Assembly: GCA_964620765.1 (NCBI GenBank)
Contig: CAZUKF010000002.1
Location: 1-40,774, forward strand
DNA: 40,774 nt
DNA from: an uncultured Rickettsiales bacterium
GTDB taxonomy: Bacteria; Pseudomonadota; Alphaproteobacteria; Rickettsiales; SXRF01
Reading direction: 5' to 3'
Shown: positions 3,966-32,425 of the stretch, one piece after another
Layout: each line of letters starts with the position of its first letter
How positions within the stretch are numbered: the stretch's first letter is position 1
Translations under genes and position numbers: made by a program
Notes under the pieces: model-generated
The model's database searches: none
The model's input: only the letters and a program-made list of their open reading frames with translations
What the model was told of the DNA's origin: nothing

Positions 3966-4085
3966 ATAACTCCCTGAATTAGAGGGTAGGAACCTACCGA
4001 TTTTGCGCCAATTGTCAACGCGGGTGCGGCCTTAAAGCCGTTCCGGGTACGAAATCAGGAGCAAAAGACGCGATTTCTTGTCCCC

Positions 4086-9191: not shown

Positions 9192-9824
9192 TTAAATCGC
9201 CAGCGCCGCCTGTCCACTGTGCTGAACATGATGCGGCTGCACGTACTCGCACGGCACGCAAATGCTGTGCCCCGCCAGCTGGTGCAGCGCCTGGAGGGTA
9301 TCGACGCACTGGCAGCTCTGGCCGATGGCCCCGTGCGCGATGGGGTATACCGCCGAGCAATCCATGCCCACGCCTGCAGGCACATAATGCGCACCGCCGA
9401 GCGTGAACGTGTCGGCATAGCCCTGCTTGGGCTCGTAGATTTTCCACTTCATCGATTCGCGGTCGAATACCTGCGCGAACACGTGGCCTTCCGCGCCCGC
9501 ATGCGTCGTGCCCAGCGTATCGGCCTTGAATGTTTCAATGTAAAGCGCGGGAATGCCCGCCGCGCGCGCCAGCGCCAGAAACACGTGCCCGCAATCCGTG
9601 CAGCCGGTTTCAGTGCCGGAGGTGATGATTTCAGAGGCCGTGCGCTTACGGAACACATCCGCCTTATGGGAATCGTCGTGCTTCAGCGTTTTGATGTATT
9701 CGCTGATTTTATGCAGCGTGGTGGTATTGCTGTCGATAGCTTCCTGCTGCAGCTGGTGCGCAAGCGCGGTTACCTTTGCGTCTGCCTGCGTGAACTTGCC
9801 TTGTTGCATCTGGTCGTAGTGCAT
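9192..9824 (-). CDS. Transglutaminase-like cysteine-protease-fold protein with a Cys/His-rich C-terminal tail
   Basis: Strong SD (GGAGGG). GCTDCGHVFLALARAAGIPALYIE...GHVFAQVF...WKIYEP matches the Cys / His / acidic-residue spacing of the transglutaminase-like core. The tail is CSAVYPIAHGAIGQSCQCVDTLQALHQLAGHSICVPCEYVQPHHVQH. Confidence 0.55.
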   Translation of the reverse strand: MHYDQMQQGKFTQADAKVTALAHQLQQEAIDSNTTTLHKISEYIKTLKHDDSHKADVFRKRTASEIITSGTETGCTDCGHVFLALARAAGIPALYIETFKADTLGTTHAGAEGHVFAQVFDRESMKWKIYEPKQGYADTFTLGGAHYVPAGVGMDCSAVYPIAHGAIGQSCQCVDTLQALHQLAGHSICVPCEYVQPHHVQHSGQAALAI

Positions 9825-9844
9825 GCACCCTCCAGTTTAGTTTT

Positions 9845-11719
9845 TTAGATGGTGGTCTTCGGGCCACCCTTCTGCTGGTCGCGCTTGCGCTGTTCGATGA
9901 TGCGTGTTGCAACGTCCACGTCATCCGGCGCAATTTTGTCATTCAGACTCACATCGGTCACCGCCAGGCCCGAAAGCCCGCCGCCACCGTCCGCCTTCTT
10001 CGTTTCACCCTGCTTGGGCGCCTGCTGCTGCCCCGGCGCGCTGCCACGCACCATGGATTTCAGCGCATCGATATCCGCAAGGCCCAGCCCTTTTAAAAGA
10101 TTATCCAGCTTCGCCGGCTGCTGCACCTCGGGGTTCAGCTTGATGGGGTTCTGCGTGCTGGAAATACCCTGGAATTTGTCGGCAATACCGTCGCCGTTCA
10201 CGTCGTTGGCGTTACGGCGCTGGTTGAACGCGTTCACCTGTGCCGATTTCTTCTGCTGCTTCAGCTTGCGCTTCTTGCGCTTGAGCATGTCGGCGGAAAG
10301 CAGCGAATCCTGCGTCTGTTCCACCGCTTCTTCCTGCGCGCGCTCGTGGTCATCCACCTGCTGTTCCATGCTGCCGAACGTGTGTTCCAGCGCACCCTTG
10401 AGCGTCTGCATCAGGCGGTCCACCGTGTGGCCCTTCAGCTCGTTCCACTTGTCCGGCTGGCGCGTTTCATCCACGCTCACGGACATGGTATCGGCAATGC
10501 TTTTCGGTTTTTCCAGCTTGGCCATCAGCTCGATGGAATGCTTCAACACCTTCGCCGCCTCGTTGCCCTGCTGTATCTGCTCGCTGTTCGAAAGCGACGG
10601 GTCACGCGCCATGGCGCGGCTCATGATCTGCTGGTAGAAGCCGACAAACTTGGCCACCACGCCCACCATCTCGCGCTTCTCGTCAGCCGAGCCGTCCTGC
10701 AGGATGCTTTGCGGGCTGCGGTCAGAGAACTTGATGTCCTTGAACCAGCGCAGGATGGTGATGCCGTGTTCCACTGTTTCACGCTTCGTGGCGTTATTGA
10801 GGCTTTCCTCGACCGCCGCTTCTTCCTGCTCCTGCGCCTGCACCTTTTCCAGCGCCAGCTTCTGCGCATAGGCGCGCAATTTTTCGTCGGACATGGTCAG
10901 CGGGTCCAGCGGCGCGCGCGCGTTCAGCCCGTCTTCGGAGAACGGCGTATATTCTACCGGCGGCAGGTCCCACTCGCGCACGGGCATGCCCATCCAGCGG
11001 CGGATGTCGCTCACCACGCTGTTGAAGAGGCCGGTTGTGCGCTCAAGCTTTTTCAGGTGGCGGTAGGCGTAGGCGGCGCCGTCACCTTCCATGTTCAGCA
11101 GTTTCGTATCCAGCGACGGCGCAAACAGCGCGGGCAGCAGGCGCTTCTCATTGCTGATGGCACGGCCCACCTCGGTGGCCATGGAAACCAGCTGTGGGAT
11201 GTAGCGTTCGTCGCCCGGGTCAAAAGACCCGTCGGTCATGTACGTGCCCATCACGTAGTTGCGCAAGGCCGCGAGGTTTTCACGCAGCGGTGCGTATTGC
11301 CCGTAAGTGGCCCTGTTCGGATCAAAAATATCGGGGCGGCCGGCCGTCTCCACGATGACGCGGTCAAAGAAGCGGTAGGCCTGGGTGTCAAAGCCCAGCT
11401 TCGCACCATCGGCGCCTTTCTGCACAAGCTGCTGGTGGGCAGCGAACGTTTCCTCGACGGGGATGATGAACTTGCCCACGTTCGGCCAGAACTGGATACG
11501 GCCGCTGGAGCCTTCTTCGTGCATTTCGCGCAGCATCTCCGCGCGCTCGGCGGCTTCGCGCTCGGCATGCGCCATCTCTAGCTGTATGCGGTTGGAGGGC
11601 AGGTTGGTGTATTCACCTTCGCCCTGCGGGTCATACCGGCGCGCGTATTCCGCGCTGAACCCGCGGCCGCCGGGGCGGCCATCGTAATCGTCATCGTACG
11701 GGTTTTTGTCCCTTGCCAT
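9845..11719 (-). CDS. Hypothetical protein (624 aa), no signal peptide, charged K/Q/E-rich C-terminal third
   Basis: Long ORF with an SD (AAGGA) and 20-bp and 31-bp gaps to its flanking same-strand genes. One DVNGDGIAD calcium-loop-like motif; otherwise no motif I recognise. Confidence 0.7.
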   Translation of the reverse strand: MARDKNPYDDDYDGRPGGRGFSAEYARRYDPQGEGEYTNLPSNRIQLEMAHAEREAAERAEMLREMHEEGSSGRIQFWPNVGKFIIPVEETFAAHQQLVQKGADGAKLGFDTQAYRFFDRVIVETAGRPDIFDPNRATYGQYAPLRENLAALRNYVMGTYMTDGSFDPGDERYIPQLVSMATEVGRAISNEKRLLPALFAPSLDTKLLNMEGDGAAYAYRHLKKLERTTGLFNSVVSDIRRWMGMPVREWDLPPVEYTPFSEDGLNARAPLDPLTMSDEKLRAYAQKLALEKVQAQEQEEAAVEESLNNATKRETVEHGITILRWFKDIKFSDRSPQSILQDGSADEKREMVGVVAKFVGFYQQIMSRAMARDPSLSNSEQIQQGNEAAKVLKHSIELMAKLEKPKSIADTMSVSVDETRQPDKWNELKGHTVDRLMQTLKGALEHTFGSMEQQVDDHERAQEEAVEQTQDSLLSADMLKRKKRKLKQQKKSAQVNAFNQRRNANDVNGDGIADKFQGISSTQNPIKLNPEVQQPAKLDNLLKGLGLADIDALKSMVRGSAPGQQQAPKQGETKKADGGGGLSGLAVTDVSLNDKIAPDDVDVATRIIEQRKRDQQKGGPKTTI

Positions 11720-11750
11720 GCCTTAGTCCTTTGGCTTCAGGGGGCGTGCG

Positions 11751-12032
11751 TTACTGCACGTTTTCCACCGTCAGCTGCTGTCCTTCCTCCGCCGCGGCCG
11801 TGCCCAGCGCGTAGACGCAAAGATCCTCGAACGATACGTTATTCTCTATCGCGATCTTGTGCAGGCGCTCGAAGCTGTCCATCACCTCCTGCGGGATGGT
11901 GCCGCCGCGCACTGTCGAAAGCCACCATGCCTGATGCTGCAACGGGTGCCGCTGCGGGTGCGGCTCTCCCACGTAAACATGGAAGGGATATTTCGTCCCG
12001 TTGAAGTCACACGGTATGGTAAAACGCTTCAT
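11751..12032 (-). CDS. Small conserved hypothetical protein (93 aa)
   Basis: An SD (GGAG) precedes the ATG. MKRFTIPCDFNGTKYPFHVYVGEPHPQRHPLQHQAWWLSTVRGGTIPQEVMDSFERLHKIAIENNVSFEDLCVYALG. From memory this resembles the short alphaproteobacterial DUF2610-type family; unverified. Confidence 0.65.
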   Translation of the reverse strand: MKRFTIPCDFNGTKYPFHVYVGEPHPQRHPLQHQAWWLSTVRGGTIPQEVMDSFERLHKIAIENNVSFEDLCVYALGTAAAEEGQQLTVENVQ

Positions 12033-12234: not shown

Positions 12235-15200
12235 GTGCGATCACCACATAAACAGGGGGACTCCGCATATATTAGCCTAAGGACAGCGGCTTACGCTGCC
12301 CTTATCACTACCAGTCTGAGCACCGCTTACAGCGCCCTCGCCGAGGCAACCCAAGCCACACCAAAGACCGCCCCGCCCTGGTGGCAGCAGCCGGATGAAG
12401 GATGGGCGGCATATGCCGCCCGAACTATATTGGAAACGCTGGCCATCCCGGCGGCACACGCGCAGGCAGACGAATATCTTCCCTACCGCGAACTGCCGGA
12501 TTACCTGCCACCAACTTCGCCCAATGCCGTGCCGTCACCGCACCCGGTTTATGCATCGCCGGACCCGTTCATCCCGTATTCTTCGCAGGAATCCCCGTCT
12601 TTTGAACCCGCGCCTTATGGCGTCCCGCCGGTTCTTTCGCCGCACCCCGCGCCACTGCTGCTGAATTCCATCGACCTGAACCCGCTTTCGCTCTTCATCA
12701 AACCGGCCCACGCAATACCGCCAAAACTCCCAACCATCCCGCCAACCTCTCCGCCAACTTTAGCACCCACATTCGCTGCGACCGAGACGCCGACCGAAGG
12801 CATAACCGACGCCCCCACATTCGCTTCTACCGAAACGCCGACCGAAACTGTTACCGCAACTCCTACCTTCCCTCCCGCCCCGTTCGCACCGCCGACCGAA
12901 GAAATAACCAGCGCTCCCACCCTGCCGCCCGATGATTTTTGCATCACGCCATACGGCACATTTGCCGAGGGCTCGTACACTTCCCAGTACAGCACGTGCA
13001 TAGCGCCCGGCGTATGCCACATAGCAATCCTCAACTGCTACGCCGGCGGCAGCTGGGACGGGTTTTACGCCTATGACAGCTGCGCCGAGGCAGAGGCAGC
13101 GGAAGATTGCGGTTTCACCGAGGAAGCCACCGAGATCGCAACTTCTATTGCAACCGAAGAGCCGGCTGGTCCGGGCGTGCCGCCGGATGAAACCGGCGAA
13201 CCAACGGATGAACCCACTGAAACACCAACTCTCATCTCCACTGAAGTCCCGGTCCCGTTCGCACCACCCGGCCCCTTCGCACCACCGGGGCCGTTTGCCA
13301 CGCCCGAACCCACCGTTGTCTCGCCGTTCCTGCCGCCTGGGCCTGGCGTAGTCCCTGAACCCATTACCCGTTTTCCGGGGCCTTCACCGTTACAGCCCAC
13401 ACCCGAACCCATCGTCGTACCGGAACCTGTGCCCGAACGTGTCGTCGCACCGATGCCCACACCCGAACCCATCGTCGCACCAGCACCCACGCCCGCGCCT
13501 GTTGTACCGCAACCTGTTCCGCAAGCTGCGCCCGGCCCCCAACCTGTGCCGCAAGCAGCACCCGCACCCGAACCTGTGCCGCAAGCTGCGCCTGCACCTG
13601 CAGCCGTACCGGGCCCCGGGCCAGAACCCGTACCCCAACCTTCGCCTGCAGGCCCTGCACCCGCGCCTTCACCTGCTGCTCCGGCACCCGCACCTTCGCC
13701 GGCCGGTCCGGCGCCCGCACCAAGCCCAGCACCCGGTCCCTCACCTGGCCCCGGTCCCGGCCCGGCACCCGCGCCCGGCCCCGAGGGCAATTGCCCGAAC
13801 CCCAACCCTGCCGAAGCACCGGCACCGGCTGAAATGCCGGCCCCGGCACCTGCGCCCGCACCAGGACCACAGGCTGAACCGGAGCCCGGACCCGGCCCGG
13901 CACCGCGCCCGAACCGCGAATATCCGCCTAACGGCCCGACGCGTAAAACAGAGTACCAGGACAACACCTACCGTGACCTGTGCAAGAGCAGCCGCATCCT
14001 GAAACCGGGTGAGTTCTTCGATGACATAACGGGTGAACTTGTACTCGCCGGTGATGGCCCGAACCCGGCGCCTGATCCCACGCTGGAAGAAAATTTCTTC
14101 GCCGCGCAGCATGTGGCGGGCGCAAAGCCGGGTGAAAACTGCATGCCGGCCAAGAACACGCCGGTGGTGGACCTGAAGAACACGCCATTCATGTGGGTGA
14201 ACCTGAAAGACGCCTCCACCGGCAAGGAACTCAATGATCTCGCACGCATCTACCGCTGGACCGGCAAGGATGACACGCTGAAAGCCTACATGCAGGTGGT
14301 CGGCGGCATTGATTTCTGCCCGCAGCTGCTCGTGCCGGATAAGAATTTCTGCCTCGAAGGCATGACCACCAATCCGCAGATGCTGTGCGGCGGGGTAGCC
14401 AGGCCGCCGGATGCGCCGTCTTCGAAGTGCGCCAATATGAAGGTGCGCGATTGCGATACCAAGAGGCTGATGGAGTTCCGCATGGCCGTCGTGCGCAAAT
14501 GCGCCGAAACCTACATCGCCATGCGCAGCATGCGGCCTTGGTGGCTCTACGAAAAATACGGCTCTACCTGGGAAGAGTTCCTCGCGCCGACGGGAGCCCC
14601 CTGGTACGGCTACGGCGGCCACGAAGCCGAACCGCCGGTACGCATGCTGCAACCGCTGATGCGCGGCTCCGACGCGCGCAAAGTTTACAAGGGTGAGATG
14701 AAGCAGCGCTATGCGCGCAAGGTCGACACGATCCGCGATGGCAAGCACCCGTGGCGGAACGAATGGGAGCTTGACCTGGGAGTAGAGCTTGAAAGGTATT
14801 TCAAGGACACGCTGATTTATGGTACGGCACTCGACCAGGCGGCAAGCGCAAGAATCCCCAAGAGCCTCGCAATGAAGGTGCCCAAGCCCTTCCCCGACGT
14901 CAACATGCCCTGCATCAAGGACAAGGGAGGGTTGACGGTTGCGCCGGGCGTGGAGCCGCCGAGAGACAGCCCTGCCCCGGCACCAGCGCCAGCGCCTGAA
15001 CCGGTTCCGGAGGATAACAATCCGAACCCGGTACCCCAGGCCGCTCCCGAGCCGCCCGTGCCGGGTGATCCCTGCAAACCCAAAAAGCCGCCGCAGACCT
15101 GCGGCTCCGGCTCCATAACGCATGGCGGCTTCTGCGACCCCGGCGACGATGAGGAAACGAAGCCCCCCATACCGCCGGCCGTGCCGGATCCAATCGAGCA

Positions 15201-17763
15201 GACCGAAGAAGCGTGCGGCACGCCGATCTACGCAATACCCGGCTACGAATACAAACCGCCGAAAGTGCACGAGAAGCAGCCGGACTGGTGCACGCCGGTA
15301 GAACAGTTCCTCATGGTTGATGCATGGGCTCCGCGCAGCTGGGTGGCGCGCGGCGGCAATCCCCATGACCGCTACCTGCCGCCTTCAAGCATTGACTACG
15401 ACATCGCGGATACGGATCGCCACTTCTCCAACAAGACGTCGCGGTACGTAAACCTGCAGGTTCCCGGCACAAAAATTTGCCAGAGAGTGCTTGGCTACAC
15501 CACCTACCAGGAATGGCAGAACCCCGAGCATAAGGCGCTCGACGCGATCGCCATGTGCGCCATCACGCCAGTCGACCTCATGACCTTCCGCTTCGACGTA
15601 TTCAACGGCTGCATGGGCCAGCGCATCAACTTCAACTACAACACGTGGGTGAAGTGGATGAAAGTCCCGGCCAACTTCAATGCCTACACAAACTGGGTTG
15701 AAGACTACGACATGAGCAGGCCGCCCCACGAAAACGATGCCTGCCCCTTCATCCCGCCCTGCGCCACGCGCTACTACCAGACCGACGATGCCAATGTCTG
15801 CAAGGCCGCGGCCTGGAGTGTCAAGCAGTGCTGCGGCTTCGCCGCCATGCCGGTGACGCTGGTCAACCAGACCAAGACACGCATGCAGTATGGCCCACGC
15901 AAGGCATTTGAAAACGTCGCGGACCCGGATTCACCCGGTTACGATTCCACCAAGAAATACCCGCTGATCGCACAGAATTACATGGAGACATATGTCGCTA
16001 CGCCGTTCTCATGGGGTACGCAATGGTCTGGCCCCGGCAGCAATGCCAATGAAGAGGACCTGAAGGCCGTCGAGAAAATGCACGACATCGGCTGGCCGGC
16101 AGCAAGTTATGACATCCCGCGAACACCCCGTGACGCTACTTTCTTCTACACATTCCGCATCCTGAGTGGCCGCTCCGACCCTTCTAACACCAGCCCCAAC
16201 AAGATCATCGGCGCCTACTTCCCGGGCACCAAGTACTATGATACGGGCGGCGTGGCCGGCACATCGAAAGACTACGTGGATATGGGCATCATCACACCGG
16301 ACCAGGCGCGCGGCGGCGTGGATTACTTCAACAACGCCTTCACGTATGACGTCACCGGCATCATCGGCAATGAAGGCCGCACCAAGTCAGAAGCAGAAGA
16401 AGCGATCAAGCTCGCCCAAGGCATCACCAACCCGCGCTATACCAGGCCGCAGTTCGAACTCGACTGGCTGGAGCAACCGCAAAATTCGCGCATGGGCGGT
16501 TACGGCACCATCGTCAACCGCGTGTGGGATACGATCATGAACGGCCGCTATAACCGCATGCCCGCCGGCGGCCTGCCGCGTTATGAAGTCACCTTCAAGG
16601 ACTTCGACATGGACGATTTCCCCCTTGGCCTCGCCGGCGGCCAGTTCAACGCGCCCAACGGCGCCGTCTACCAGTGGCCCAAGGGCTGGCGCGGCTACGG
16701 CTCCGAAAGTTTCGTGAATGTCACCAACGGCTTCCCTTATGTCAATAATCCCGGCATGGCAGGGGTTGTACCGCCTCTTATCGTGGGCGGAAAGGTTTCC
16801 CTATCTCAGGCGCAGGCCGACGATATCATCGTGGTTGATATCGATGGCATCCCGCGCACGTATTTCGTGGTGATGAAAGGCAACAAGCCGCACCCTGAAA
16901 GCATCCAGGGCTGCATCGCCAATCCCACGCTCTGCTACGATATGGCCTACATCCAATCCACCAGCACGGACTTCCTGATCGTGAAGTCCATGGGCATCAA
17001 CAAGGTGCCCTCCTCCACCGGCATCGGCTCCAGCTGGGGCAGGGACAGCACGCAGATGCTGTTCTCAGGCCCTGTAACGCTGCTCAATGACAAGGTCCAC
17101 AAGAACCCCGGGCTGGCGGAAGAAGGCTGGTACCGCTGGGTAACCAATAACAGAATTATTGGCGCGTTCGACAAAGTGGGCGATTACGTGCCTACGCATC
17201 CGAACCCGCACTTCCTCACACCCTCCTGCCGCGACCCGGATTTCCTGGCCTGCACCGTGCCGAAAAGCGCGTGGAACAACGCCATAATCTTCCGCCCCCA
17301 CAGCAGCGTTAATGACTGCGCGCGCTCCGGTGTCTGCATGGACCCGTTTGGCAATCCACAAATCGTCGCCATGAGAGATGTTCCGCCGGGCAACACACGC
17401 TGCGGCGCCAGCCTGGTCATGAGCTGCTACAACGACGGTAAAGACCCCCTGCCCGGCAAGCCATGGACACTGATGGGCTCGTGGGTGCAACAGCGGTCCG
17501 GCGGCTACAAGGGCGTCGGCGCGGGCGACTACACGCTCGCCGGCTTCTGCCCCGCGGTGTTCAACAGGCTTATCCCGGACATGACCAACCCGAACTGCGT
17601 CAGGTTCGGCCCCAACAGCCCGGATTGCCCGAAGAAGATGGAAGTGCTGAACAAGGGTGATCCGGAAGGCGCCTGGGGAAGCTGCCCGTCCGCGCGCCTG
17701 GGCCCTAACAAGAAAAATACGCCGCTGCCGTCAGGGCCGATGAACGGCGGGGCAGCCCGGTAA
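12235..17763 (+). CDS. Giant exported protein (1842 aa): signal peptide, long Pro/Ala/Thr-rich spacer, two Cys/Trp/Tyr-rich regions of unknown fold
   Basis: An in-frame TAA immediately precedes the GTG at 12235. The N-terminus, SLRTAAYAALITTSLSTAYSALA-EA, looks like a signal peptide. Codons ~80-560 are almost pure P/A/T/E/G/V low complexity with tandem repeats. A second PAPAPAPEP linker lies at ~14950-15200. I count more than 30 Cys downstream of the first spacer. Confidence 0.8.
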   Translation: MRSPHKQGDSAYISLRTAAYAALITTSLSTAYSALAEATQATPKTAPPWWQQPDEGWAAYAARTILETLAIPAAHAQADEYLPYRELPDYLPPTSPNAVPSPHPVYASPDPFIPYSSQESPSFEPAPYGVPPVLSPHPAPLLLNSIDLNPLSLFIKPAHAIPPKLPTIPPTSPPTLAPTFAATETPTEGITDAPTFASTETPTETVTATPTFPPAPFAPPTEEITSAPTLPPDDFCITPYGTFAEGSYTSQYSTCIAPGVCHIAILNCYAGGSWDGFYAYDSCAEAEAAEDCGFTEEATEIATSIATEEPAGPGVPPDETGEPTDEPTETPTLISTEVPVPFAPPGPFAPPGPFATPEPTVVSPFLPPGPGVVPEPITRFPGPSPLQPTPEPIVVPEPVPERVVAPMPTPEPIVAPAPTPAPVVPQPVPQAAPGPQPVPQAAPAPEPVPQAAPAPAAVPGPGPEPVPQPSPAGPAPAPSPAAPAPAPSPAGPAPAPSPAPGPSPGPGPGPAPAPGPEGNCPNPNPAEAPAPAEMPAPAPAPAPGPQAEPEPGPGPAPRPNREYPPNGPTRKTEYQDNTYRDLCKSSRILKPGEFFDDITGELVLAGDGPNPAPDPTLEENFFAAQHVAGAKPGENCMPAKNTPVVDLKNTPFMWVNLKDASTGKELNDLARIYRWTGKDDTLKAYMQVVGGIDFCPQLLVPDKNFCLEGMTTNPQMLCGGVARPPDAPSSKCANMKVRDCDTKRLMEFRMAVVRKCAETYIAMRSMRPWWLYEKYGSTWEEFLAPTGAPWYGYGGHEAEPPVRMLQPLMRGSDARKVYKGEMKQRYARKVDTIRDGKHPWRNEWELDLGVELERYFKDTLIYGTALDQAASARIPKSLAMKVPKPFPDVNMPCIKDKGGLTVAPGVEPPRDSPAPAPAPAPEPVPEDNNPNPVPQAAPEPPVPGDPCKPKKPPQTCGSGSITHGGFCDPGDDEETKPPIPPAVPDPIEQTEEACGTPIYAIPGYEYKPPKVHEKQPDWCTPVEQFLMVDAWAPRSWVARGGNPHDRYLPPSSIDYDIADTDRHFSNKTSRYVNLQVPGTKICQRVLGYTTYQEWQNPEHKALDAIAMCAITPVDLMTFRFDVFNGCMGQRINFNYNTWVKWMKVPANFNAYTNWVEDYDMSRPPHENDACPFIPPCATRYYQTDDANVCKAAAWSVKQCCGFAAMPVTLVNQTKTRMQYGPRKAFENVADPDSPGYDSTKKYPLIAQNYMETYVATPFSWGTQWSGPGSNANEEDLKAVEKMHDIGWPAASYDIPRTPRDATFFYTFRILSGRSDPSNTSPNKIIGAYFPGTKYYDTGGVAGTSKDYVDMGIITPDQARGGVDYFNNAFTYDVTGIIGNEGRTKSEAEEAIKLAQGITNPRYTRPQFELDWLEQPQNSRMGGYGTIVNRVWDTIMNGRYNRMPAGGLPRYEVTFKDFDMDDFPLGLAGGQFNAPNGAVYQWPKGWRGYGSESFVNVTNGFPYVNNPGMAGVVPPLIVGGKVSLSQAQADDIIVVDIDGIPRTYFVVMKGNKPHPESIQGCIANPTLCYDMAYIQSTSTDFLIVKSMGINKVPSSTGIGSSWGRDSTQMLFSGPVTLLNDKVHKNPGLAEEGWYRWVTNNRIIGAFDKVGDYVPTHPNPHFLTPSCRDPDFLACTVPKSAWNNAIIFRPHSSVNDCARSGVCMDPFGNPQIVAMRDVPPGNTRCGASLVMSCYNDGKDPLPGKPWTLMGSWVQQRSGGYKGVGAGDYTLAGFCPAVFNRLIPDMTNPNCVRFGPNSPDCPKKMEVLNKGDPEGAWGSCPSARLGPNKKNTPLPSGPMNGGAAR
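12763..12858 (+). repeat. 2 x 48-bp in-frame tandem repeat (APTFA[A/S]TETPTE...)
   Basis: 12763-12810 and 12811-12858 align directly: gcacccacattcgctgcgaccgagacgccgaccgaa... versus gcccccacattcgcttctaccgaaacgccgaccgaa... Confidence 0.7.
13507..13596 (+). repeat. 3 x 30-bp in-frame tandem repeat (P[Q/E]PVPQAAP[G/A])
   Basis: The units 13507-13536, 13537-13566 and 13567-13596 differ at only a few positions. Confidence 0.8.
13639..13719 (+). repeat. 3 x 27-bp in-frame tandem repeat (PSPA[G/A]PAPA)
   Basis: The units 13639-13665, 13666-13692 and 13693-13719 were read directly from the sequence. Confidence 0.75.
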
Positions 17764-17868: not shown

Positions 17869-18588
17869 CTAGTGCGAGGAAAGGTACGTCTCGGCGGCAG
17901 CAAGGCCTGCCGGGTCACCCACGTGCAGCCAGCCGCCGTCATGCGGCAGCGCGAACACGCGCGCGAGCGTGCCGTCTTTGCTCATGCCGCGGTTATAAAG
18001 CACGTTGAGCGAGAAGGCGCCCGTTGCAGGACAGCCTTGGAAAAAGCGCGGATGCAGCAGCTGGATGCCGGTAAACACGTACGGCGCGCCCGCGGCTTCA
18101 CCGCGGCGGCGGATCATGCCGCTGTCGCTGACAAAAAAATCCCCCGGCCCTTCGTAACCGGTCACCCGTTCAAGCGGGTGCACCAGCAGCAGCGCATCCA
18201 TGCGTGCGTCATCCCATGCCTTGCGCAGGCGCTCCACCGCGTGCGCGCGGCCGTTCACGCAGATCGTATCGCTGTTGACGGAAAGAAATGGTGCAGCCCC
18301 CAAATGCGGCAGCGCCTCGCGAATGCCGCCGCCGGTTTCCAGCGGCTCCGCCTCGCGCGAGATGGTCACATGCGGGTGGGCGCGCTTTTGCAGATGCGCC
18401 ACCAGCGCGTCGGCGAGGTAACTCGCGTTCACCACCGCCTGCTCGATACCGGCGCTTTGCACAAAATCCAGCGAATAGTCGATCAGCGGCTTGCCCAGCA
18501 CCGGCACCAGCGGTTTGGGCAGCTTGTCGGTAAGCGGGCGCATGCGCAGCCCAAGCCCCGCTGCCAGAATAATGGCGCGTTCAACCAT
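17869..18588 (-). CDS. murU: Sugar-1-phosphate nucleotidyltransferase, MurU-like (N-acetylmuramate alpha-1-phosphate uridylyltransferase)
   Basis: MVERAIILAAGLGLRMRPLTDKLPKPLVPVLGKPLIDY is the NTP-transferase signature. It overlaps the upstream kinase-family gene by 8 nt, matching the AmgK-MurU pairing. Confidence 0.75.
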   Translation of the reverse strand: MVERAIILAAGLGLRMRPLTDKLPKPLVPVLGKPLIDYSLDFVQSAGIEQAVVNASYLADALVAHLQKRAHPHVTISREAEPLETGGGIREALPHLGAAPFLSVNSDTICVNGRAHAVERLRKAWDDARMDALLLVHPLERVTGYEGPGDFFVSDSGMIRRRGEAAGAPYVFTGIQLLHPRFFQGCPATGAFSLNVLYNRGMSKDGTLARVFALPHDGGWLHVGDPAGLAAAETYLSSH

Positions 18589-19648
18589 TGATTTTCAGTT
18601 CGCCACGAACGGATTTCGGCACGTGTTTGTCCGTCCAGCTTTTCAACTCGGCGAGCATCGGGTGCGAAAGATCATGCTCCAGATGCGCCCACACGCGCGG
18701 TAGGAACGAAAGATACGCGTGCTTGTTGTCGCGCCGCGCCAGGCGGCAGAAAATCCCCACGATCTTGCTGTTGCGCTGCGCCGCCAGCAGCGCATAGGCG
18801 GGCGTGAAATTGCTTTCCTTCTCACCGGTGGCAGCAAGATAACGCTTCAGGCAGCGTGCGGCCGTGCCGGGTTTGAGATCGCGCCGCGCATCTTCCAGCA
18901 GCGAGACCAGGTCATACGCCGCGTGGCCCCACAGCGCATCCTGGAAATCCAGCAGGCCCACGCGCGCCTCGCCTTCACGCTCCGGCAGCCATAGCAGGTT
19001 GTCGGCATGGTAATCACGGTGCACAAAAAATTCGCAGGGCAGCTTCGCCCGCTCCAGCAGCCGCTGCCAGATATCAAGGTATTCGTCATGCAGCCCCGCC
19101 GCCTTCGCTTCGCCCAGCGCCGCCGGCAGGAACCATTCCGCAAACAGCCCCACCTCGCGCATCAGCTCTTTCGTATTATAATCCGGTAGCTCGCCTGCCT
19201 GCGCGGAGCCGGTGCTCCGCTCCGGCGTAGGCAGGCCCGCGCCCTTGCGCATCTTCGGTTCGGCGTGCCATGCGGCCAGCACATCCACCGCCGCGTCGTA
19301 AAACGTGGCTTCGTCGCCGCCATGCGCCAGCACGCGGGTGAACAAATCATCGCCCAGATCTTCGCAGATCAGCAGGCCGGACGCGGCATCTTCCGCCAGC
19401 ACTTCCGGCGCGCTGAACCCGAGGCCGTGCAGCCGGCGCGCCACGCGCACATACGGCACGATGTTTTCCTTTTCCGGCGGCGCATCCATCAGCATCGCGG
19501 TATCGGCGCCGCGCTGCAGGCGGATATAACGGCGGAACGAGGCATCACCTTTCAGCGGCAGCAACTGCGCGTCACCCCAGCCGCTCTTGGCCAGGAACGC
19601 CTGCATCGCGCTTTCACGGTTTAACGATTTGGCTACACCTGCCGTCAT
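18581..19648 (-). CDS. amgK: Aminoglycoside-phosphotransferase-fold kinase, AmgK-like (anomeric MurNAc/GlcNAc kinase)
   Basis: APH/choline-kinase motifs: GDASFRRYIRL, HRDYHADNLLWLP, and LLDFQDAL with a catalytic HxDxxxxN-type loop. It is positioned between tsaE and murU with 4-nt and 8-nt overlaps. Confidence 0.7.
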   Translation of the reverse strand: MTAGVAKSLNRESAMQAFLAKSGWGDAQLLPLKGDASFRRYIRLQRGADTAMLMDAPPEKENIVPYVRVARRLHGLGFSAPEVLAEDAASGLLICEDLGDDLFTRVLAHGGDEATFYDAAVDVLAAWHAEPKMRKGAGLPTPERSTGSAQAGELPDYNTKELMREVGLFAEWFLPAALGEAKAAGLHDEYLDIWQRLLERAKLPCEFFVHRDYHADNLLWLPEREGEARVGLLDFQDALWGHAAYDLVSLLEDARRDLKPGTAARCLKRYLAATGEKESNFTPAYALLAAQRNSKIVGIFCRLARRDNKHAYLSFLPRVWAHLEHDLSHPMLAELKSWTDKHVPKSVRGELKING

Positions 19649-20097
19649 GCAATCCCTGCTTTAACCAGGCGACTGTACCATCCACTTCCCGCATTGCAAA
19701 TGAGAACACGCCCACCATCCGCCATTTCCAGCGTAAGGCGCAGATGCCCCGGCGGCAGCATGCTTTCTGCAATCTCCGGCCATTCAATCAGCACAATGCC
19801 GCTCTCAAACCCCTCCTCCAGCCCCAGCTCCTGTAATTCTTCCGGGTGCTTGAGGCGGTAAAGGTCGGCATGCCAGAGCAGGCCGCGCGGTGTCTCGTAG
19901 GTCTGCACCAGGTTGAAGGTCGGGCTCGCCACCTCTACCTCGCCCGCAAGTGCGCGGATAAACCCGCGCGCGAAAGTGGTTTTCCCTGCACCCAGCCCAC
20001 CGCTTAAGCCAATGCAATCGCCTGACCGTGCCAGCGCGGCAAAACGCGCGCCGCAGGCCAGCGTGGCGGCTTCATCAGCGAGGTTAATCCCGCTCAT
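19645..20097 (-). CDS. tsaE: tRNA threonylcarbamoyladenosine (t6A) biosynthesis ATPase TsaE
   Basis: The P-loop GLSGGLGAGKTTFARGFIRAL followed by SPTF.LV..Y......WH.DLYRL is diagnostic for TsaE/YjeE. The start is placed at the internal ATG at 20097 (MSGINLADEA...). Confidence 0.85.
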   Translation of the reverse strand: MSGINLADEAATLACGARFAALARSGDCIGLSGGLGAGKTTFARGFIRALAGEVEVASPTFNLVQTYETPRGLLWHADLYRLKHPEELQELGLEEGFESGIVLIEWPEIAESMLPPGHLRLTLEMADGGRVLICNAGSGWYSRLVKAGIA

Positions 20098-20278
20098 CGA
20101 TCCAGGCTTGTTGAATGGCTTCGAGAATCTTCTCGTTGCAGCCGTCCGGCGCGTCGGCAAAGCCGGGCAGCGCCAGCACCCACTGGCGCAGGTCGGTGAA
20201 CCTTAAATTAAGGTTGTCCGCGTCGGGGTGCATGTCCTCCAACGCAATCGCGATTTCCCTGATATCTAACCAACGCAT
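20084..20278 (-). CDS. iscX: IscX (YfhJ)-family Fe-S assembly accessory protein (64 aa)
   Basis: MRWLDIREIAIALEDMHPDADNLNLRFTDLRQWVLALPGFADAPDGCNEKILEAIQQAWIDERD aligns along its full length with my memory of E. coli IscX (..W.DSREIGEAL.D..PD.DP..VRFTD.HQW...L..F.DDP...NEKILEAI...W.DE). Only the last 64 codons of the 186-aa track ORF are used. Confidence 0.8.
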   Translation of the reverse strand: MRWLDIREIAIALEDMHPDADNLNLRFTDLRQWVLALPGFADAPDGCNEKILEAIQQAWIDERD

Positions 20279-20356: not shown

Positions 20357-20746
20357 ATGACCATGATCGACAAAACCCTGCCCATCCTCATCGTTGACGA
20401 TTACAACATGATGCGCAACATCGTGCGCGGGCTGCTGAAACAGCTGGGCTTTGAAAACGCCGACGAGGCGGCCGACGGCACCGAGGCGCTGGCCCGCCTG
20501 AAAGAGAAAAAATACGGCCTCATCATATCGGACTGGAACATGCAGCCCATGACGGGGTTGGACCTGCTGAAGAACGTGCGCGGCGATTCCGAGCTCCGGC
20601 ACACCCCCTTCATCATGGCCACCTCCGAGAACAAACCCGAGCACTTGCTCACCGCCAAGCAGGCCGGTGTCAGCAACTACCTCGTCAAACCCTTCAACGC
20701 GGACATGCTGAAAGCCAAGATGGTCAGCGTATTGGGGGCTTTCTGA
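20357..20746 (+). CDS. Single-domain CheY-like response regulator
   Basis: ILIVDDYNMMRNIVRGLLKQLGF...ISDWNMQPMTGLDLLKNVR...PFIMATSE...GVSNYLVKPF contains the acidic pocket DD, the phospho-acceptor D in SDWNM, and the conserved T and K. Confidence 0.9.
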   Translation: MTMIDKTLPILIVDDYNMMRNIVRGLLKQLGFENADEAADGTEALARLKEKKYGLIISDWNMQPMTGLDLLKNVRGDSELRHTPFIMATSENKPEHLLTAKQAGVSNYLVKPFNADMLKAKMVSVLGAF

Positions 20747-23700
20747 TGAAGCGCCACCTGCTTGCCCTTGCGGTTACCGCCTCGCTCCTGCCCGCGCTCG
20801 CGCTGTCGGCATCCGGCAGCACGCCGGTGGTGCGCGGCGAGGTGATCCGCGATTTCGCCCGCGTAACGTTTGAATGGCCGCGCACGGTGTATCTCACCAC
20901 GAAAACAGAGGGCAACACCGTTACCCTCAATTTTGACCGCCGCGCCAACCCGGATTTCGGGGCGCTGCTGGGCGGACTCTCGCCTTACGTGGTCAATGCT
21001 TCGCTCTCCGCCGACGGCAAATCCGTGCAGCTGACGCTGGACAAGGCCTACCGCATCCGTAGCTTTGTCAGCGGTAATCTGAACGGCGTCGATATCGTGG
21101 GCGTGGATGCCAGCCTGCACCGCAAGCCGGAAAAGCAGCTGGCTGCGCTGGCCCCCGCTGCCGGTGAAGAGAAACCGTCATCCCCGCCGGAGCAAAGCGC
21201 AGAGCGGGGATCTGGGAAAACCCCGGATGTCGTGCGCACACCCGAGATCCCCGCTTCCGCGGGGATGACACAAAACAAGAAACCCGAGCCGAAACCGGCT
21301 CCTGTGGCAGAAAAAAAGCCAGAAGAAAAACCGGTGCAAATGACGGAAGCGAAGCCGGAAGCACCGCCTGAGCCGCCGCCCTCGCCTGTTGCCGCCACGC
21401 CGCCGGAGCCGCCGCCTGCCCCGGTTGCCGCCGCCGCACCTGAAGCGCCCGTAGCCCTGGCCACACCCGTGCCCGCCGCCGACGTGCCTGCGCTTTCCGC
21501 CGAGCCTGCCCCCGCCTTCGCCCCACCCAAGGAAACCGGGGAACCGGGCAAGGACGAAGACCGCGTGCAGGTCTTTGCCAGCACCAGCGGCGAGCGCACC
21601 ATCCTGCGTTTTGCCTGGCCGACGCGCGTGGCTGCCGCCACCTTCAAGCGCGGGCCTTACGTGTGGGTGGTCTTCAACAAAACCTCGAAGCTTGATCTCG
21701 ATGCTGTAAAGCAGACCGCCGATACGCTTTACCCGGATATTGAACAGTTGCCCACGCCCGGCGCCACGGTGCTGCGCATCGCGCGGCCTTCCAGCGGCGG
21801 CGTGATGGCCACCAAGGCCGGCGATTCGTTTGAATGGAACATCGTGCTGATCAGCTCGCCGCAGCTGCCGCAAGACAAGATCCGCGTGGACGTGAACACC
21901 GAGCCACCGCTACCACCGCACGTTTTCCTCGCCATGCCGGAAGTGGTGAACCCGGTGACGATCGAAGACCCCGATTTGGGTGACACGCTGCTTGTCGTGC
22001 CGCTCTACCAGCCCGGCCAGGGCCTGGCACCCACGCGCCGCTTCATTGAATTTGCGCTGTTGGAAAGCGCACAGGGCGTGGTCATCCAGAAAATCGCTGA
22101 CTGGATGAACATCACGCCCGTGCGCAACGGTATGCGCGTCGGCGCCGAGGGCGGCGCGCTGGTCAGCCCCGCCCTTGCCTCTTCGCGTAAAGTTCCGGAA
22201 ATCTCGCTGCCCTCCACGCCCACCAACACGCCGCAAGGCCAGAGCACTACGCTTTTCCCGTATGAGCTCTGGCGGGCAGACCCCGCGGTGCCTTTCGTCG
22301 ACCAGGTGAACGAGCTGGAGATCGCCATCGCCGCATCCGGCATCCCCGATGAAGGGATGAAATTGCGCCTGAAGCTGGCCCAGCTTTACCTTGCCGAGGG
22401 CTTTACCACCGAGGCGCTGGGCATGGTGCAGGAAATCCGCCGGATTGACTCGCAGTCCTACGTAGGCCTGCGCGCGGCGGCCATCGCCGGCGGCGCAAAT
22501 TTCCTCATGCACCGCTTCTCCGAAGCCGCCGATGATTTCGCCGCCGCCGAACTGCAGGGCAGCCCCGAGGTGGAATTCTGGAAAAACGTGCTGGCGGAGC
22601 TCTTAGGCAAGCCGGAGCAGAATTACCGCTACCTGGAGAATAACGACGCCTATATCAGCAAATACCCGCCGCGCATGCGCCAGCGCCTGTCCATCGCGGC
22701 GGCAGACCGCGCCGTCGCACAGGCCGATTACGCAAGCGCGCTGGAGATCATGGAGCTGATGAAATCGGAAGACCTGGTAGAAGGGCTGGACTCCTATCTC
22801 AGCTATCTCGCCGCCAAGATCGCGCTGGAGACGGGCAAGGAAAAAGAAGGGCTGGAAGCACTGGTCACGCTGGCACAGGACTACAAACACCTCTCGGTGC
22901 GCGCGCGCGCCGAGTTCACCCTCATCAATTACGAGCTGAAGAAAGACCCGGAAAGCATCAAGGTGCTGCAGCCCCGGCTTGAGCGGCTTTACACCTCGTG
23001 GCGCGGCGACAGCCTAGAGATGGAAACGCTGAAAATCCTCGGCGAGCTTTATGCCCAGCAGGAAGAATACGTGCGCGCCATGCAGGCGTGGCGCGACCTG
23101 ATCACCGCTTTCCCCAGCACGGTCTCCGCCGCGGTGGCGCTCAACAAGATGCAGGCCACTTTCGTGCAGCTGTTTGACGGCGGTGCCGCGGGAGCCCTGC
23201 CGCCGCTGGACCAGCTTTCGCTGTATTATGAATTCCGCACCCTCACCCCAGCGGACGCGGCGGGTGACCGCATCATCAACGGCATCGCCGACCGGCTGGT
23301 CTCTATTGACCTGCTGGAGCAGGCCATCACGCTGATCGATTACCGCATGCGCTACCTGTATGAGAAAGAGGCGCGTTCCCGCGCCGGCGCCAAGCTCGCC
23401 CGTATCTTTCTGATAAACCGCCAGCCCAAGAAGGCGCTGGAAGCGCTGCAGAAGTCGCTTTACGGTGAAAACCCGGAAGATTTGAAGGTGGAGCGAGACC
23501 GGCTGGCGGCGCAGGCCATGGTAGAAATGGAACGCTACGGCGAAGCAGCGGCCCTGCTGGCGGAAGACAAATCCACCGAGGCGGAAGCCATCCGCCAGCG
23601 TTCATGGTGGAAGCAGAAGGACTGGCCGAAGCTGATCGCTTCCGTGGAAGGAGACCTCAAGAACCGCGCCACGCTGACGGCTGCCATTACCGAGCCGGAG

Positions 23701-24078
23701 GGCGAGAAGCTCACCCAGCTGGCGTTGGCCTACGTGGCCGAGAACGACACCGCCCAGCTACAATATTTGCGTGATTACTTCACCCCGCTGATGCAGGACA
23801 ATTCTCGCCTGAAGCTGTTTCACTTCATCACCGAACCGCAGTTGCTGGTCACCCCCGAGATGTTCGATGCCATGCTGCAGCAGGTGGAGGATACCCGCCA
23901 ATTCATCAAGGAGTTTGATATCCATCCCAAGCTGGCGCAGATGAGCGACGGCGCGCCGCACGCGGCCGAGACACCCATCGTGGCACCGGTAGACCTTTCC
24001 CCAGACGCCGCCAAGAAGCTGGAGGAAGAGGCAAAGGAGAAGGACCCGGCGAAAGAGAAAGAAAAGCCCACCCCCTAA
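20746..24078 (+). CDS. Exported 1110-aa protein: signal peptide, two beta-rich N-terminal modules split by a Pro-rich spacer, long C-terminal TPR-like helical repeat region
   Basis: Signal peptide MKRHLLALAVTASLLPALALSASG. Pro/Ala spacer PEAPPEPPPSPVAATPPEPPPAPVAAAAPEAP. Helical repeats, for example LRLKLAQLYLAEGFTTEALGMVQEI and LKILGELYAQQEEYVRAMQAWRDLI. The start ATG overlaps the cheY-like stop (TGATG). Confidence 0.8.
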   Translation: MKRHLLALAVTASLLPALALSASGSTPVVRGEVIRDFARVTFEWPRTVYLTTKTEGNTVTLNFDRRANPDFGALLGGLSPYVVNASLSADGKSVQLTLDKAYRIRSFVSGNLNGVDIVGVDASLHRKPEKQLAALAPAAGEEKPSSPPEQSAERGSGKTPDVVRTPEIPASAGMTQNKKPEPKPAPVAEKKPEEKPVQMTEAKPEAPPEPPPSPVAATPPEPPPAPVAAAAPEAPVALATPVPAADVPALSAEPAPAFAPPKETGEPGKDEDRVQVFASTSGERTILRFAWPTRVAAATFKRGPYVWVVFNKTSKLDLDAVKQTADTLYPDIEQLPTPGATVLRIARPSSGGVMATKAGDSFEWNIVLISSPQLPQDKIRVDVNTEPPLPPHVFLAMPEVVNPVTIEDPDLGDTLLVVPLYQPGQGLAPTRRFIEFALLESAQGVVIQKIADWMNITPVRNGMRVGAEGGALVSPALASSRKVPEISLPSTPTNTPQGQSTTLFPYELWRADPAVPFVDQVNELEIAIAASGIPDEGMKLRLKLAQLYLAEGFTTEALGMVQEIRRIDSQSYVGLRAAAIAGGANFLMHRFSEAADDFAAAELQGSPEVEFWKNVLAELLGKPEQNYRYLENNDAYISKYPPRMRQRLSIAAADRAVAQADYASALEIMELMKSEDLVEGLDSYLSYLAAKIALETGKEKEGLEALVTLAQDYKHLSVRARAEFTLINYELKKDPESIKVLQPRLERLYTSWRGDSLEMETLKILGELYAQQEEYVRAMQAWRDLITAFPSTVSAAVALNKMQATFVQLFDGGAAGALPPLDQLSLYYEFRTLTPADAAGDRIINGIADRLVSIDLLEQAITLIDYRMRYLYEKEARSRAGAKLARIFLINRQPKKALEALQKSLYGENPEDLKVERDRLAAQAMVEMERYGEAAALLAEDKSTEAEAIRQRSWWKQKDWPKLIASVEGDLKNRATLTAAITEPEGEKLTQLALAYVAENDTAQLQYLRDYFTPLMQDNSRLKLFHFITEPQLLVTPEMFDAMLQQVEDTRQFIKEFDIHPKLAQMSDGAPHAAETPIVAPVDLSPDAAKKLEEEAKEKDPAKEKEKPTP

Positions 24079-24081
24079 GAT

Positions 24082-24147
24082 GTCACCCCGCACTTGTTGC
24101 AGGGTCTCCTCGTAACTGCGGGAGATGCCGCAACGAGTGCGGCATGA
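24082..24147. repeat. Imperfect palindromic element between convergent genes
   Basis: The left arm tcaccccgcacttgttgcagggtctcc (24083-24109) resembles the reverse complement of the right arm (24121-24147), tcatgccgcactcgttgcggcatctcc. It fills the 71-bp gap between the TPR-protein stop and the dps stop. Confidence 0.6.
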
Positions 24148-24149
24148 AA

Positions 24150-24662
24150 CTACATTTTAGCGCTCTTGCGCTCCGAAACGCTGGCATGCTCCTCACGGTG
24201 CGCCTCCACGAACCACATCTGCTTGTCGAGCTTGCCGGTAATCTGGGTGAGGATATCGGCCGTCACGGTATCGCCCGCCTCGTCCGCCGCGTCGATCCCC
24301 TTGCGGGCATTGGCGTTGAACGTAGCGATGGCGCGGGAAAGCGCGCTCACATGTACCTGCCCGTCATCGCGCAGGTGGGGGTAGTCTTTCAGGCGCGACT
24401 CCTTGGCCACAAAGCGGGCCGTGCCGGGAGCCTCGCCCCCCAGCTGCATGATGCGCTCGGCAATCTCGTCGGCGGAAAGCGCTACCTCGGTTGCCACCTG
24501 GTCAAACAGCTCATGCAGGGCAATAAAGCCCGGCCCGCGCACATTCCAGTGCGCCTGCTTGGTCTGGCCATAGAGGTCCAGCGCATCGGCAAGCAGCGGT
24601 GAAAGCAGGGTAATCACTTTCTGGCGGGCAGAGGCGGGCAGATCATTCTGGGTGGGGTGCAT
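24150..24662 (-). CDS. dps: Dps (DNA-binding ferritin-like starvation protein)
   Basis: LLADALDLYGQTKQAHWNVRGPGFIALHELFDQ....ADEIAERI..LGG is the canonical Dps ferroxidase-centre region. Confidence 0.92.
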   Translation of the reverse strand: MHPTQNDLPASARQKVITLLSPLLADALDLYGQTKQAHWNVRGPGFIALHELFDQVATEVALSADEIAERIMQLGGEAPGTARFVAKESRLKDYPHLRDDGQVHVSALSRAIATFNANARKGIDAADEAGDTVTADILTQITGKLDKQMWFVEAHREEHASVSERKSAKM

Positions 24663-27015: not shown

Positions 27016-27033
27016 GGAAAAGCAGTATCCGGA

Positions 27034-29660: not shown

Positions 29661-29661
29661 A

Positions 29662-32333: not shown

Positions 32334-32425
32334 AATAATTTAAAATTAATCCATTAGTACTAATGCTATATTGATAGAAATATACTATATCAGTATTAAC
32401 TTATCCTAATCTTCTTAAAACATTC

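Follow-up and report, generated by a model that had tools for sequence, protein, structure and literature searches.

What is the product of the largest gene on a 40,774-nucleotide contig of an uncultured Rickettsiales bacterium (GenBank assembly GCA_964620765.1, contig CAZUKF010000002.1), and does this gene have any relatives? The gene, an open reading frame (ORF) of 1842 codons at 12235..17763 on the + strand, had been characterized in a preliminary description, made from the sequence alone, as an orphan encoding a giant exported protein; the whole stretch of 40,774 nucleotides is referred to here as the window. We found that the gene belongs to a rare family of giant exported proteins, not described before, that occurs in uncultured Rickettsiales-like alphaproteobacteria; its product is likely a real, exported, disulfide-bonded member of this new family. 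The best overall explanation of the evidence, to which we assign a probability of about 0.55, is a Sec-exported, disulfide-stabilized envelope or surface protein of this family that binds or cuts a polymer.

The ORF is not a chance opening but a real gene: its frame contains 0 stops over the first 1,700 nt, whereas each of the remaining five frames contains 8-18. An in-frame TAA lies immediately 5' of the GTG start codon, and the next in-frame starts are found at codon 66 (TTG) and codon 99 (GTG). The encoded protein of 1842 aa is organized into the following segments:

12235-12342, + strand: GTG start and putative Sec signal peptide, residues 1-36, ...ITTSLSTAYSALA/EA (from start context and likeness to relatives).
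12343-12930, + strand: low-complexity region 1, residues 37-232, rich in Pro, Thr, Ala and Glu, with PTFA-TETPTE repeats (from composition and repeats).
12931-13113, + strand: 6-Cys module, residues 233-293, with Cys at 236, 255, 261, 268, 283 and 292 (from Cys positions and a local drop in Pro).
13114-13929, + strand: low-complexity region 2, residues 294-565, strongly Pro/Ala-rich and acidic, with in-frame repeats (from composition and repeats).
13930-14934, + strand: conserved mid domain, residues 566-900, with motifs YRDxC, G.KP....CMP.K.TP, C..(Q)YI and CQPL, the last reading LQPL in the window (from homology).
14935-15204, + strand: second Pro-rich linker, residues 901-990, 31% Pro (from composition).
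15205-15984, + strand: conserved module A, residues 991-1250, with motifs TDR.(Y/F)S, C..(V/T)PVD(I)L.FR...F..C..QRIN.N, PPC.T(R)..E.D....C and S(V/I)(K/Q)QCC (from jackhmmer).
15985-17634, + strand: conserved module B, residues 1251-1800, with a variable insert at ~1251-1320 (core ~1270-1800) and motifs (W/Y)(W/Y)DTG, NT.G..D.I.G.GRE, (C)..RYE..FK, WP.GWRGY, GLDNA..GDII, (W)DQGKFP.S.G and C.DP.....C...P...W....(Y/F)RP (from block alignments).
17635-17763, + strand: C-terminal tail, residues 1801-1842, followed by a TGA/TAA stop, with GAWGSCPSA common to the relative P0002 only (from alignment with locus L001, which encodes P0002).

To determine how far the family extends, all 1.84 billion protein cluster representatives were scanned with a HMMER profile of the C-terminal region, which yielded 78 relatives at E<=1e-3, including 59 at E<=1e-10; a metagenome scan with peptide patterns of the main group added 23 further loci. 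The designation of the gene as an orphan is therefore incorrect. The relatives are nearly all 1,000-2,400 aa in length with 2-3% Cys, and each cluster that was looked up comprised 1-3 member sequences. The common core corresponds to window residues ~565-1800 and consists, according to jackhmmer, of the mid domain, module A and module B in constant order; hmmsearch and jackhmmer matches span q1-1282 of the query, and relatives align over q5-1240 with the same module order. Most members carry all three modules in this order, and the distant subgroup P0056-P0078 has mainly modules A and B in common. Among the individual modules, the mid domain was found in nearly all main-group relatives (jackhmmer) and is 47% identical to that of L001, module A was matched over q430-690 in ~60 relatives, and module B is the best-conserved portion of the family in block alignments.

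A word-indexed search found one relative only, P0002, which is 39% identical and is encoded on a 6.5-kb contig; the identity to P0002/L001 along both conserved regions is 39-47%, in syntenic position. The same type of search with a 50-sequence alignment returned mostly low-complexity candidates and gained one fragment, P0079. No relatives were detected in viral contigs, and two scans of GTDB genome contigs as well as the first metagenome scan also returned none. The negatives of these pattern scans are method artifacts, because NCBI metagenome-assembled genomes (MAGs) carry homologs and the main-group patterns recovered 23 loci; the first patterns had been derived from the aberrant window clade and produced false negatives. 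P0001, the database entry for the window protein, forms a long-branch clade with P0002 and P0003. With regard to domain content, the 2411-aa member P0047 (L003 10001-17236, from a Rickettsiales MAG) contains an inserted domain matching the FCCH domain of ubiquitin-activating enzyme E1 (Pfam E 1.9e-13), and long members (1,900-2,250 aa) contain large inserts between modules A and B.

The core of the family was not matched by any family or fold in the collections searched. On the whole window protein, Pfam, NCBIfam and PHROGs gave no match (none at E<=1 for Pfam and NCBIfam), and searches of 31 relatives with Pfam, to E<=10, and NCBIfam revealed no recurrent family. Sequence searches of the PDB returned Pro-rich low-complexity matches only, while profile searches of the PDB, based on the mid domain, on the C-terminal region or on the 50-sequence family, retrieved nothing credible. 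The structure of residues 601-1800 was modeled with AlphaFold2 (AF2) on a 57-sequence family alignment, giving a mean predicted local distance difference test (pLDDT) score of 71.4 and a predicted template modeling (pTM) score of 0.78; an AF2 model on a two-sequence alignment (pLDDT 25.6) was discarded. In the core model the pLDDT is mostly 60-90 in the mid domain, 80-96 in module A and mostly 75-90 in module B, and the only disordered parts are the linker 900-990 (pLDDT 30-44 at model residues 300-390), whose sequence and length differ among relatives, residues 1255-1268 and residues 1770-1800. Since a pTM of 0.78 was obtained over 1,200 residues, the three modules are predicted to pack into one body. 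Foldseek comparison of the core model with 350,542 PDB chains and BFVD gave no match at E<=0.001, with best E values of 6-9 over 30 columns. As judged from Pfam, NCBIfam, PHROGs, PDB and BFVD, we rate the modeled core as a new protein family and fold, in line with the earlier statement that no fold could be recognized. A conserved, confidently modeled extracytoplasmic core of 1,200 residues without a sequence or structural relative is rare, and it exposes a gap in annotation and structure databases.

The motif scan of the window protein found no HExxH, GGxGxD or CxxC, and together with the negative Pfam results it upheld the earlier exclusion of HExxH and RTX motifs and of an autotransporter C-terminus. 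Three candidate identities were rejected on these grounds: an RTX toxin or adhesin (no GGxGxD repeats, no Pfam match), a zinc metalloprotease, including M60/SslE (no HExxH, no Pfam or NCBIfam match at E<=1), and a type V autotransporter (no C-terminal beta-barrel by Pfam or AF2).

Conservation within the core is highest in module B, where the conserved blocks are (W/Y)(W/Y)DTG, NTLG..D.I.GVGRE, C-IGRYEK.FK, PWPLGWRGY, GLDNA..GDII, WDQGKFPTSTG, RTIYK and C.DP.Y..C…W….YRP. The window copy retains 94 of the 133 conserved columns, including the module-B invariants; the retained residues are D1336, T1337, G1338, G1378, E1380, R1438, E1451, K1455 and G1468, as well as W1485, R1486, G1487, Y1488, D1530, K1590, D1667, W1680 and R1687.

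The window protein contains 41 Cys in total (the preliminary description had counted more than 30), and profile and jackhmmer alignments show that the Cys pattern is conserved, with ~16 Cys columns maintained across the family. Cys583, Cys636 and Cys756 of the mid domain are invariant, and six Cys of module A (1108, 1126, 1176, 1189, 1199 and 1200) are near-invariant. Two further columns are nearly universal: column 805 ("CQPL") holds Cys in 43 of 44 sequences, with Leu in the window only, and column 1444 ("C-IGRYEK") holds Cys in 72 of 73 sequences, again missing in the window only. The joint loss of 805 and 1444 suggests a disulfide between the mid domain and module B, which would fit the compact model and an oxidizing compartment. 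Columns 1665 and 1673 are likewise lost jointly, in the same three sequences (phi 1.0). The conserved cysteines thus behave like disulfide pairs, from which we infer the bonds themselves, and the proposal of an extracellular disulfide-bonded protein is borne out to the extent that export is likely from the signal peptides of the relatives.

Two catalytic motifs were considered for module B and rejected. The module has a loosely similar order to NlpC/P60-CHAP enzymes, namely Cys, ~60 aa, GDII-x6-(H)xAYV and (D/E)xN-G-K. Unlike in those enzymes, however, the 'His' is not conserved, being H in a minority of members only, and the Cys comes after a helix rather than starting one; the window has lost the Cys of this column along with Cys805, in keeping with a role as disulfide partner, which is probable, and no Pfam or Foldseek match was obtained. 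A retropepsin-like DTG...IIG pair, which would place the protein among the aspartic proteases (pepsin/retropepsin), was rejected on the basis of a spacing of ~28-40 residues, which is too short for a pepsin-like fold, a single DTG (1336), and no Pfam or Foldseek match.

The N-terminal part of the protein is of a different nature. The signal-like N-terminus reads ...ISLRTAAYAALITTSLSTAYSALA/EA and resembles those of the relatives P0012, P0025, P0037 and P0047 (LLLTTSLT / LLTSCLS), and classical n-h-AxA signal peptides stand at the start of most full-length relatives, so that a signal peptide in the window copy is plausible. The in-frame tandem repeats that had been claimed for the Pro-rich spacer are present, with periods of 12, 18, 27 and 30 nt spread over 12730-13783: region 1 carries period-12 repeats at 12730-12758 and 12827-12867, and region 2 carries periods of 18, 30, 27 and 12 at 13248-13783. 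Residues 81-565 consist of 29.5% Pro and 14% Ala, residues 321-560 contain 13-17 Pro per 40 residues, and residues 37-565 contain 54 D+E against 9 K+R. When compared with the relatives, the N-terminal 565 residues gave low-complexity matches only; region 1 is not conserved among them, and the 6-Cys module does not significantly resemble any family sequence. A few relatives (P0012, P0018, P0003 and P0025) also have Pro-rich extensions. The overall layout given previously is confirmed: signal-like N-terminus, Pro-rich spacer, ~335-aa region, second linker and ~850-aa C-terminal region. The Pro-rich stretch also stands, but the picture of a continuous 'stalk' and a single C-terminal region does not: the 6-Cys module, which had been overlooked, breaks up the stalk, and the C-terminal region (residues 991-1842) comprises two conserved modules, not one.

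No anchor was found at either end of the window protein, that is, no lipobox Cys, beta-barrel, sorting signal or transmembrane helix. The lipobox L-[ASTVI]-[GAS]-C is absent: the window sequence ...LITTSLS... has Ser where P0025, P0037 and P0047 have LTSC, and the first Cys of the protein is Cys236. There are no hydrophobic segments besides the N-terminus and no autotransporter or sorting-signal Pfam matches, and the C-terminal part of the AF2 model has a mixed alpha/beta structure and ends in a disordered tail. Because neither end is anchored, the Pro-rich region would be a free N-terminal tail after signal-peptide cleavage and not a tether. It is probably a lineage-specific disordered spacer or tail, not a display stalk in the strict sense.

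This architecture partly recalls two known types of protein. Like the rickettsial Sca autotransporters, the window protein is giant, lineage-restricted and exported, with a fast-diverging, repeat-bearing N-terminal region; unlike them, it has no C-terminal beta-barrel (it ends ...GPMNGGAAR), and its conserved part is the Cys-bonded C-terminal 1,200 residues. Its long Pro/Ala/Thr/Glu segments of short in-frame repeats ahead of a globular domain are reminiscent of TonB-type spacers and of the Pro/Thr linkers of secreted glycoside hydrolases. In contrast to such proteins, however, it has no TonB_C or carbohydrate-active domain, and its spacer of ~530 residues is far beyond periplasm-spanning length and is unanchored after cleavage.

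The genomic position of the gene provides a further line of evidence. The neighboring genes in the window that bear on it are:

9192-9824, - strand: transglutaminase-core (Cys-protease-like) protein, 210 aa (Pfam).
9845-11719, - strand: 624-aa highly charged protein without a Pfam match (ORF).
11751-12032, - strand: DUF2610 protein, 93 aa, E 4e-37 (Pfam).
17869-18588, - strand: murU-like nucleoside triphosphate (NTP) transferase (Pfam).
18581-19648, - strand: amgK-like kinase (Pfam).
19645-20160, - strand: tsaE (Pfam).
~20087-20278, - strand: small Fe-S_assembly-like gene (Pfam).
25268-32333, - strand: type II secretion system (T2SS) genes gspM-L-K-J-I-H-G-F-E (Pfam).
32948-34894: exported PKD-domain protein (Pfam).
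34902-37340: exported protein with beta-helix, LamG and PKD domains (Pfam).
37445-39469, + strand: T2SS gene gspD (Pfam).

Neighboring genes were marked by tblastn in 36 sources, comprising the window and 35 related loci. The giant gene is convergent with murU-amgK-tsaE and the Fe-S_assembly-like gene in 22 of the 36 sources (the window and 21 loci), at GC contents of 0.43-0.63; the nearest AmgK relatives of the window belong to alphaproteobacterial MAGs, with <=66% identity. On the other side, lpxB lies upstream on the same strand as the giant gene in 10 loci, with the full run cdsA-dxr-rseP-bamA-skp-lpxD-fabZ-lpxA-lpxI-lpxB present in three loci and once more with fabZ and lpxA uncalled. In 9 loci, a divergent virB8-virB9 pair lies immediately upstream. 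The pair in L031 is not followed by virB10, virB11 or virD4 and belongs to the run ftsW-murD-bamD-virB9-virB8, and in L011 lpxC and bamD are located a few kb beyond the pair. A lone virB8-virB9 pair in housekeeping surroundings resembles the scattered layout of the rvh type IV secretion system (T4SS) described for Rickettsiales (PMC4676284), and MAGs of basal, possibly free-living Rickettsiales encode rvh (PMC11077975).

The divergent three-gene operon (DUF2610, 624-aa and transglutaminase genes, 9192-12032) and the T2SS beginning 7.5 kb downstream of the giant gene (gspM at 25268), which the preliminary description had offered as context, are both real, but neither adjoins the gene in the related loci: gspE or gspD occurs within 10 kb of it in 0 of 35 related loci and the operon likewise in 0 of 35, both being found in the window only. 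A functional tie between the gene and either the DUF2610 operon or the T2SS was rejected, given that both are absent beside the gene in all related loci. The genes that co-occur with it are instead murU-amgK-tsaE and lpxB or virB8-virB9. Judged by gene order, the giant gene is a vertically inherited positional ortholog located between bamA...lpxB or lpxC/bamD-virB9-virB8 on one side and murU-amgK-tsaE on the other. Because this slot is fixed across GC contents of 0.43-0.63 and ~25% protein identity, the gene appears to encode an envelope or surface factor of long standing that has been inherited vertically; the fixed slot suggests an ortholog, not cargo, in an uncultured alphaproteobacterial clade related to Rickettsiales.

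Several features of individual loci accompany this pattern. The gene directly after P0003 (L002 7966-10200) specifies a protein of 744 aa whose N-terminus is of prepilin type (…FAFTLLELAVVIVIIT…, including FTLLELAVV) and which has no Pfam match; a TrwC/TraI relaxase lies 0.7 kb further. This relaxase places P0003 among the few relatives found in a mobile-element setting, as is P0058, which lies within an integrase/primase element with Dam alongside. The virB-adjacent distant subgroup has, as the next gene after the giant one, a gene for a small Cys-rich exported protein (135-143 aa, C.PPCKPN), seen at L011 13732-14139, L004 15035-15466 and also in L028 and L032; two copies are 39% identical, and the window has no counterpart.

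Taken together, these results are consistent with the following mechanism. The protein would be exported by Sec via its N-terminal signal peptide, as predicted from its sequence and its relatives, and would fold in the oxidizing periplasm, where the mid domain and modules A and B (~1,200 residues) may form one compact disulfide-stabilized body; behind this step stand the pTM value of the AF2 model (0.78) and the loss of Cys in pairs, from which we infer the disulfide bonds. The body would then act outside the cytoplasm, in the envelope or at the cell surface, where it would most probably bind or cleave a polymeric substrate of its own or of a target cell. The candidate site comprises the module-B invariants D-T-G, E1380, R1438, E1451, K1455, W-R-G-Y, D1530, K1590, D1667, W1680 and R1687. 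In the window lineage, the core would lie behind an acidic, repeat-expanding Pro/Ala/Thr region of ~530 residues that is lineage-specific and probably a disordered spacer or tail. Binding or hydrolysis of an envelope or surface polymer, taken as a function in its own right, is a tentative assignment.

A number of observations weigh against this interpretation. The window signal peptide is weakly hydrophobic (best 11-residue Kyte-Doolittle mean 1.44), and both the disulfide pairs and the pocket-like grouping of invariant residues are read from the alignment, not from model coordinates. The names of the homologs give no functional hint, all being 'hypothetical protein', with one labeled 'Rickettsiales bacterium'. 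Where a region rearranges slowly, gene order may be conserved for reasons other than function, and the murU genes, being convergent, are not co-transcribed with the giant gene. The window copy is, by alignment, the most derived known member of the family: it differs at 39 of the 133 conserved columns (29%), and no other member differs at as many, despite a profile for which the window protein served as the seed; with two near-invariant Cys lost as well, its function may have changed or may be decaying. Two further points concern the start of the gene. The GC content at third codon positions (GC3) is 0.47-0.69 in the first 500 codons, compared with 0.75-0.85 in neighboring genes, and the protein-database gene call begins at the internal Met534 (13834), giving P0001 of 1309 aa, which omits the signal peptide and ~530 residues of the window protein.

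These two points, the absence of a clear Shine-Dalgarno sequence ahead of the GTG and the derived state of the copy would also fit a gene that starts at Met534 behind 533 untranslated codons of a repeat-driven frame, or a copy that is as a whole a decaying relic. We regard a short or decaying gene as unlikely, to the point of being very improbable. A start at Met534 would delete the signal peptide found in most full-length relatives, the 533 codons are free of the stops that interrupt the other frames, and Pro-rich segments between signal peptide and core also occur in P0012, P0018 and P0025; against a relic, 1842 intact codons and the conserved blocks common to the window and P0002 argue for purifying selection. 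In the closest homolog (L001/P0002), moreover, no stop interrupts the frame between the called start and the contig end upstream of it, and this stretch encodes PAPAPAP... and then residues conserved with the window; P0002 is likewise cut short, by its own gene call and the contig edge. Because the L001 frame is open and conserved upstream, only the long form has a signal peptide, and most full-length relatives start with a signal peptide and a variable extension, we consider the long form of 1842 aa to be correct. Truncation of the giant protein at an internal Met in public gene calls is accordingly an annotation error needing repair.

Alternative explanations assign the exported protein to a neighboring system. 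A complete T2SS lies 7.5 kb away in the window, and the protein could fold with disulfides in the periplasm and leave through this Gsp machine as a stalk-displayed adhesin or lytic effector. A Sec signal and disulfides are compatible with the two-step T2SS route, P0003, the closest long-context homolog, is followed by the protein with a prepilin-like N-terminus, and the giant T2SS-secreted (lipo)proteins SslE/AcfD are likewise very large and Sec-exported, with a T2SS nearby and a Pro-rich N-terminal segment. Unlike SslE/AcfD, however, the window protein has no M60-like HExxH motif or domain and no lipobox Cys, T2SS adjacency is not conserved in its relatives, and the one PDB match of this kind, 23px ('AcfD homolog', E 0.36), falls in the Pro-rich region as a low-complexity likeness only. 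The T2SS block (25268-39469) sits between ferritin and pirin genes (flanks 24150-24662 and 39974-40735) that are adjacent in the relative L008, and it therefore looks like a separate inserted island; it has its own candidate substrates in the two PKD-domain proteins at 32948-37340, and without an anchor at either end the 'stalk' would probably not display anything. We know of no sequence signature for T2SS substrates. Synteny thus weakens the reading as a T2SS substrate or adhesin, for which only proximity in the window indicates Gsp dependence, and we consider it unlikely. Somewhat more doubtful is an accessory component or cargo of an rvh-type T4SS, a periplasmic or surface factor that would aid contact with, or breach of, a target cell. 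Like pertussis toxin, it would be exported by Sec and acquire its disulfides prior to T4SS-dependent release. In support, nine related loci have the divergent virB8-virB9 pair, that of L031 is isolated and flanked by bamD, murD and ftsW in the manner of scattered rvh genes (PMC4676284), P0003 lies near a TrwC/TraI relaxase and P0058 in an integrase/primase element. F-type TraN and other Cys-rich exported conjugation or T4SS proteins are also large, with conserved cysteines, and some family members adjoin virB8-virB9 or a relaxase; unlike TraN, the window protein and 31 relatives have no Pfam or NCBIfam TraN match, and size and motifs differ. Against this role, Pfam searches of all large ORFs found no T4SS genes in the 40-kb window, ten loci have lpxB and not virB upstream, and the virB-adjacent loci belong mostly to the distant subgroup, so that the nine may go back to one ancestral arrangement and represent one evolutionary event.

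The adjacency of murU and amgK in 22 of 36 sources raises another alternative, in which the protein would be a new peptidoglycan-cleaving enzyme that releases N-acetylmuramic acid and anhydro-muropeptides from its own or a prey wall to feed AmgK/MurU salvage. An extracytoplasmic location and the invariant acidic and aromatic residues of module B (D1336, E1380, E1451, D1530, W1485 and W1680) would suit such an enzyme, but the genes are convergent and share no operon, Pfam, PDB sequence and fold searches found no likeness to lysozymes, lytic transglycosylases, amidases, NlpC/P60 or CHAP, and the CHAP-like motif order fails on its variable His and on a Cys that follows a helix and is probably a disulfide partner. 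We see a slim chance for this role, on a par with that of the rvh partner. The more general reading of a Sec-exported, disulfide-stabilized polymer-binding or polymer-cutting protein is preferred over all of these. A bolder extension of it, about as unlikely as the T2SS route, is that the core represents a new fold and functional class, a lineage-defining extracytoplasmic machine of basal Rickettsiales-like bacteria with which they would touch or attack other cells, as a new adhesin or lysin or as a Sec-dependent partner of the rvh T4SS, and that would long have been kept in one slot, with genes for outer-membrane biogenesis or the rvh T4SS on one side and for cell-wall salvage on the other. 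If true, such a cell-contact machine would bear on how this clade, once free-living or predatory, came to associate with hosts; how cell-cell attack and host association arose in the Rickettsiales-related group is an open question (PMC11077975).

The window contains no RNA families or tRNAs. Within the T2SS block, the GC content falls to 0.454 at 32001-33000. Several ORFs have no Pfam match (2506-3969, +; 162-788, +; 1475-1942, +; 1949-2386, -; and 24144-24602, +), the last of which, overlapping the oppositely oriented ferritin gene, is probably spurious, and a GGDEF protein is encoded at 4217-4921. An exported protein of 1110 aa without a Pfam match is encoded at 20746-24078 (+). Its homologs, with 35-41% identity, lie beside the tsaE block in L003, L006, L008, L014, L034 and L035, some of them near cheZ and cheY, and the homolog in L006 has faint TPR matches.

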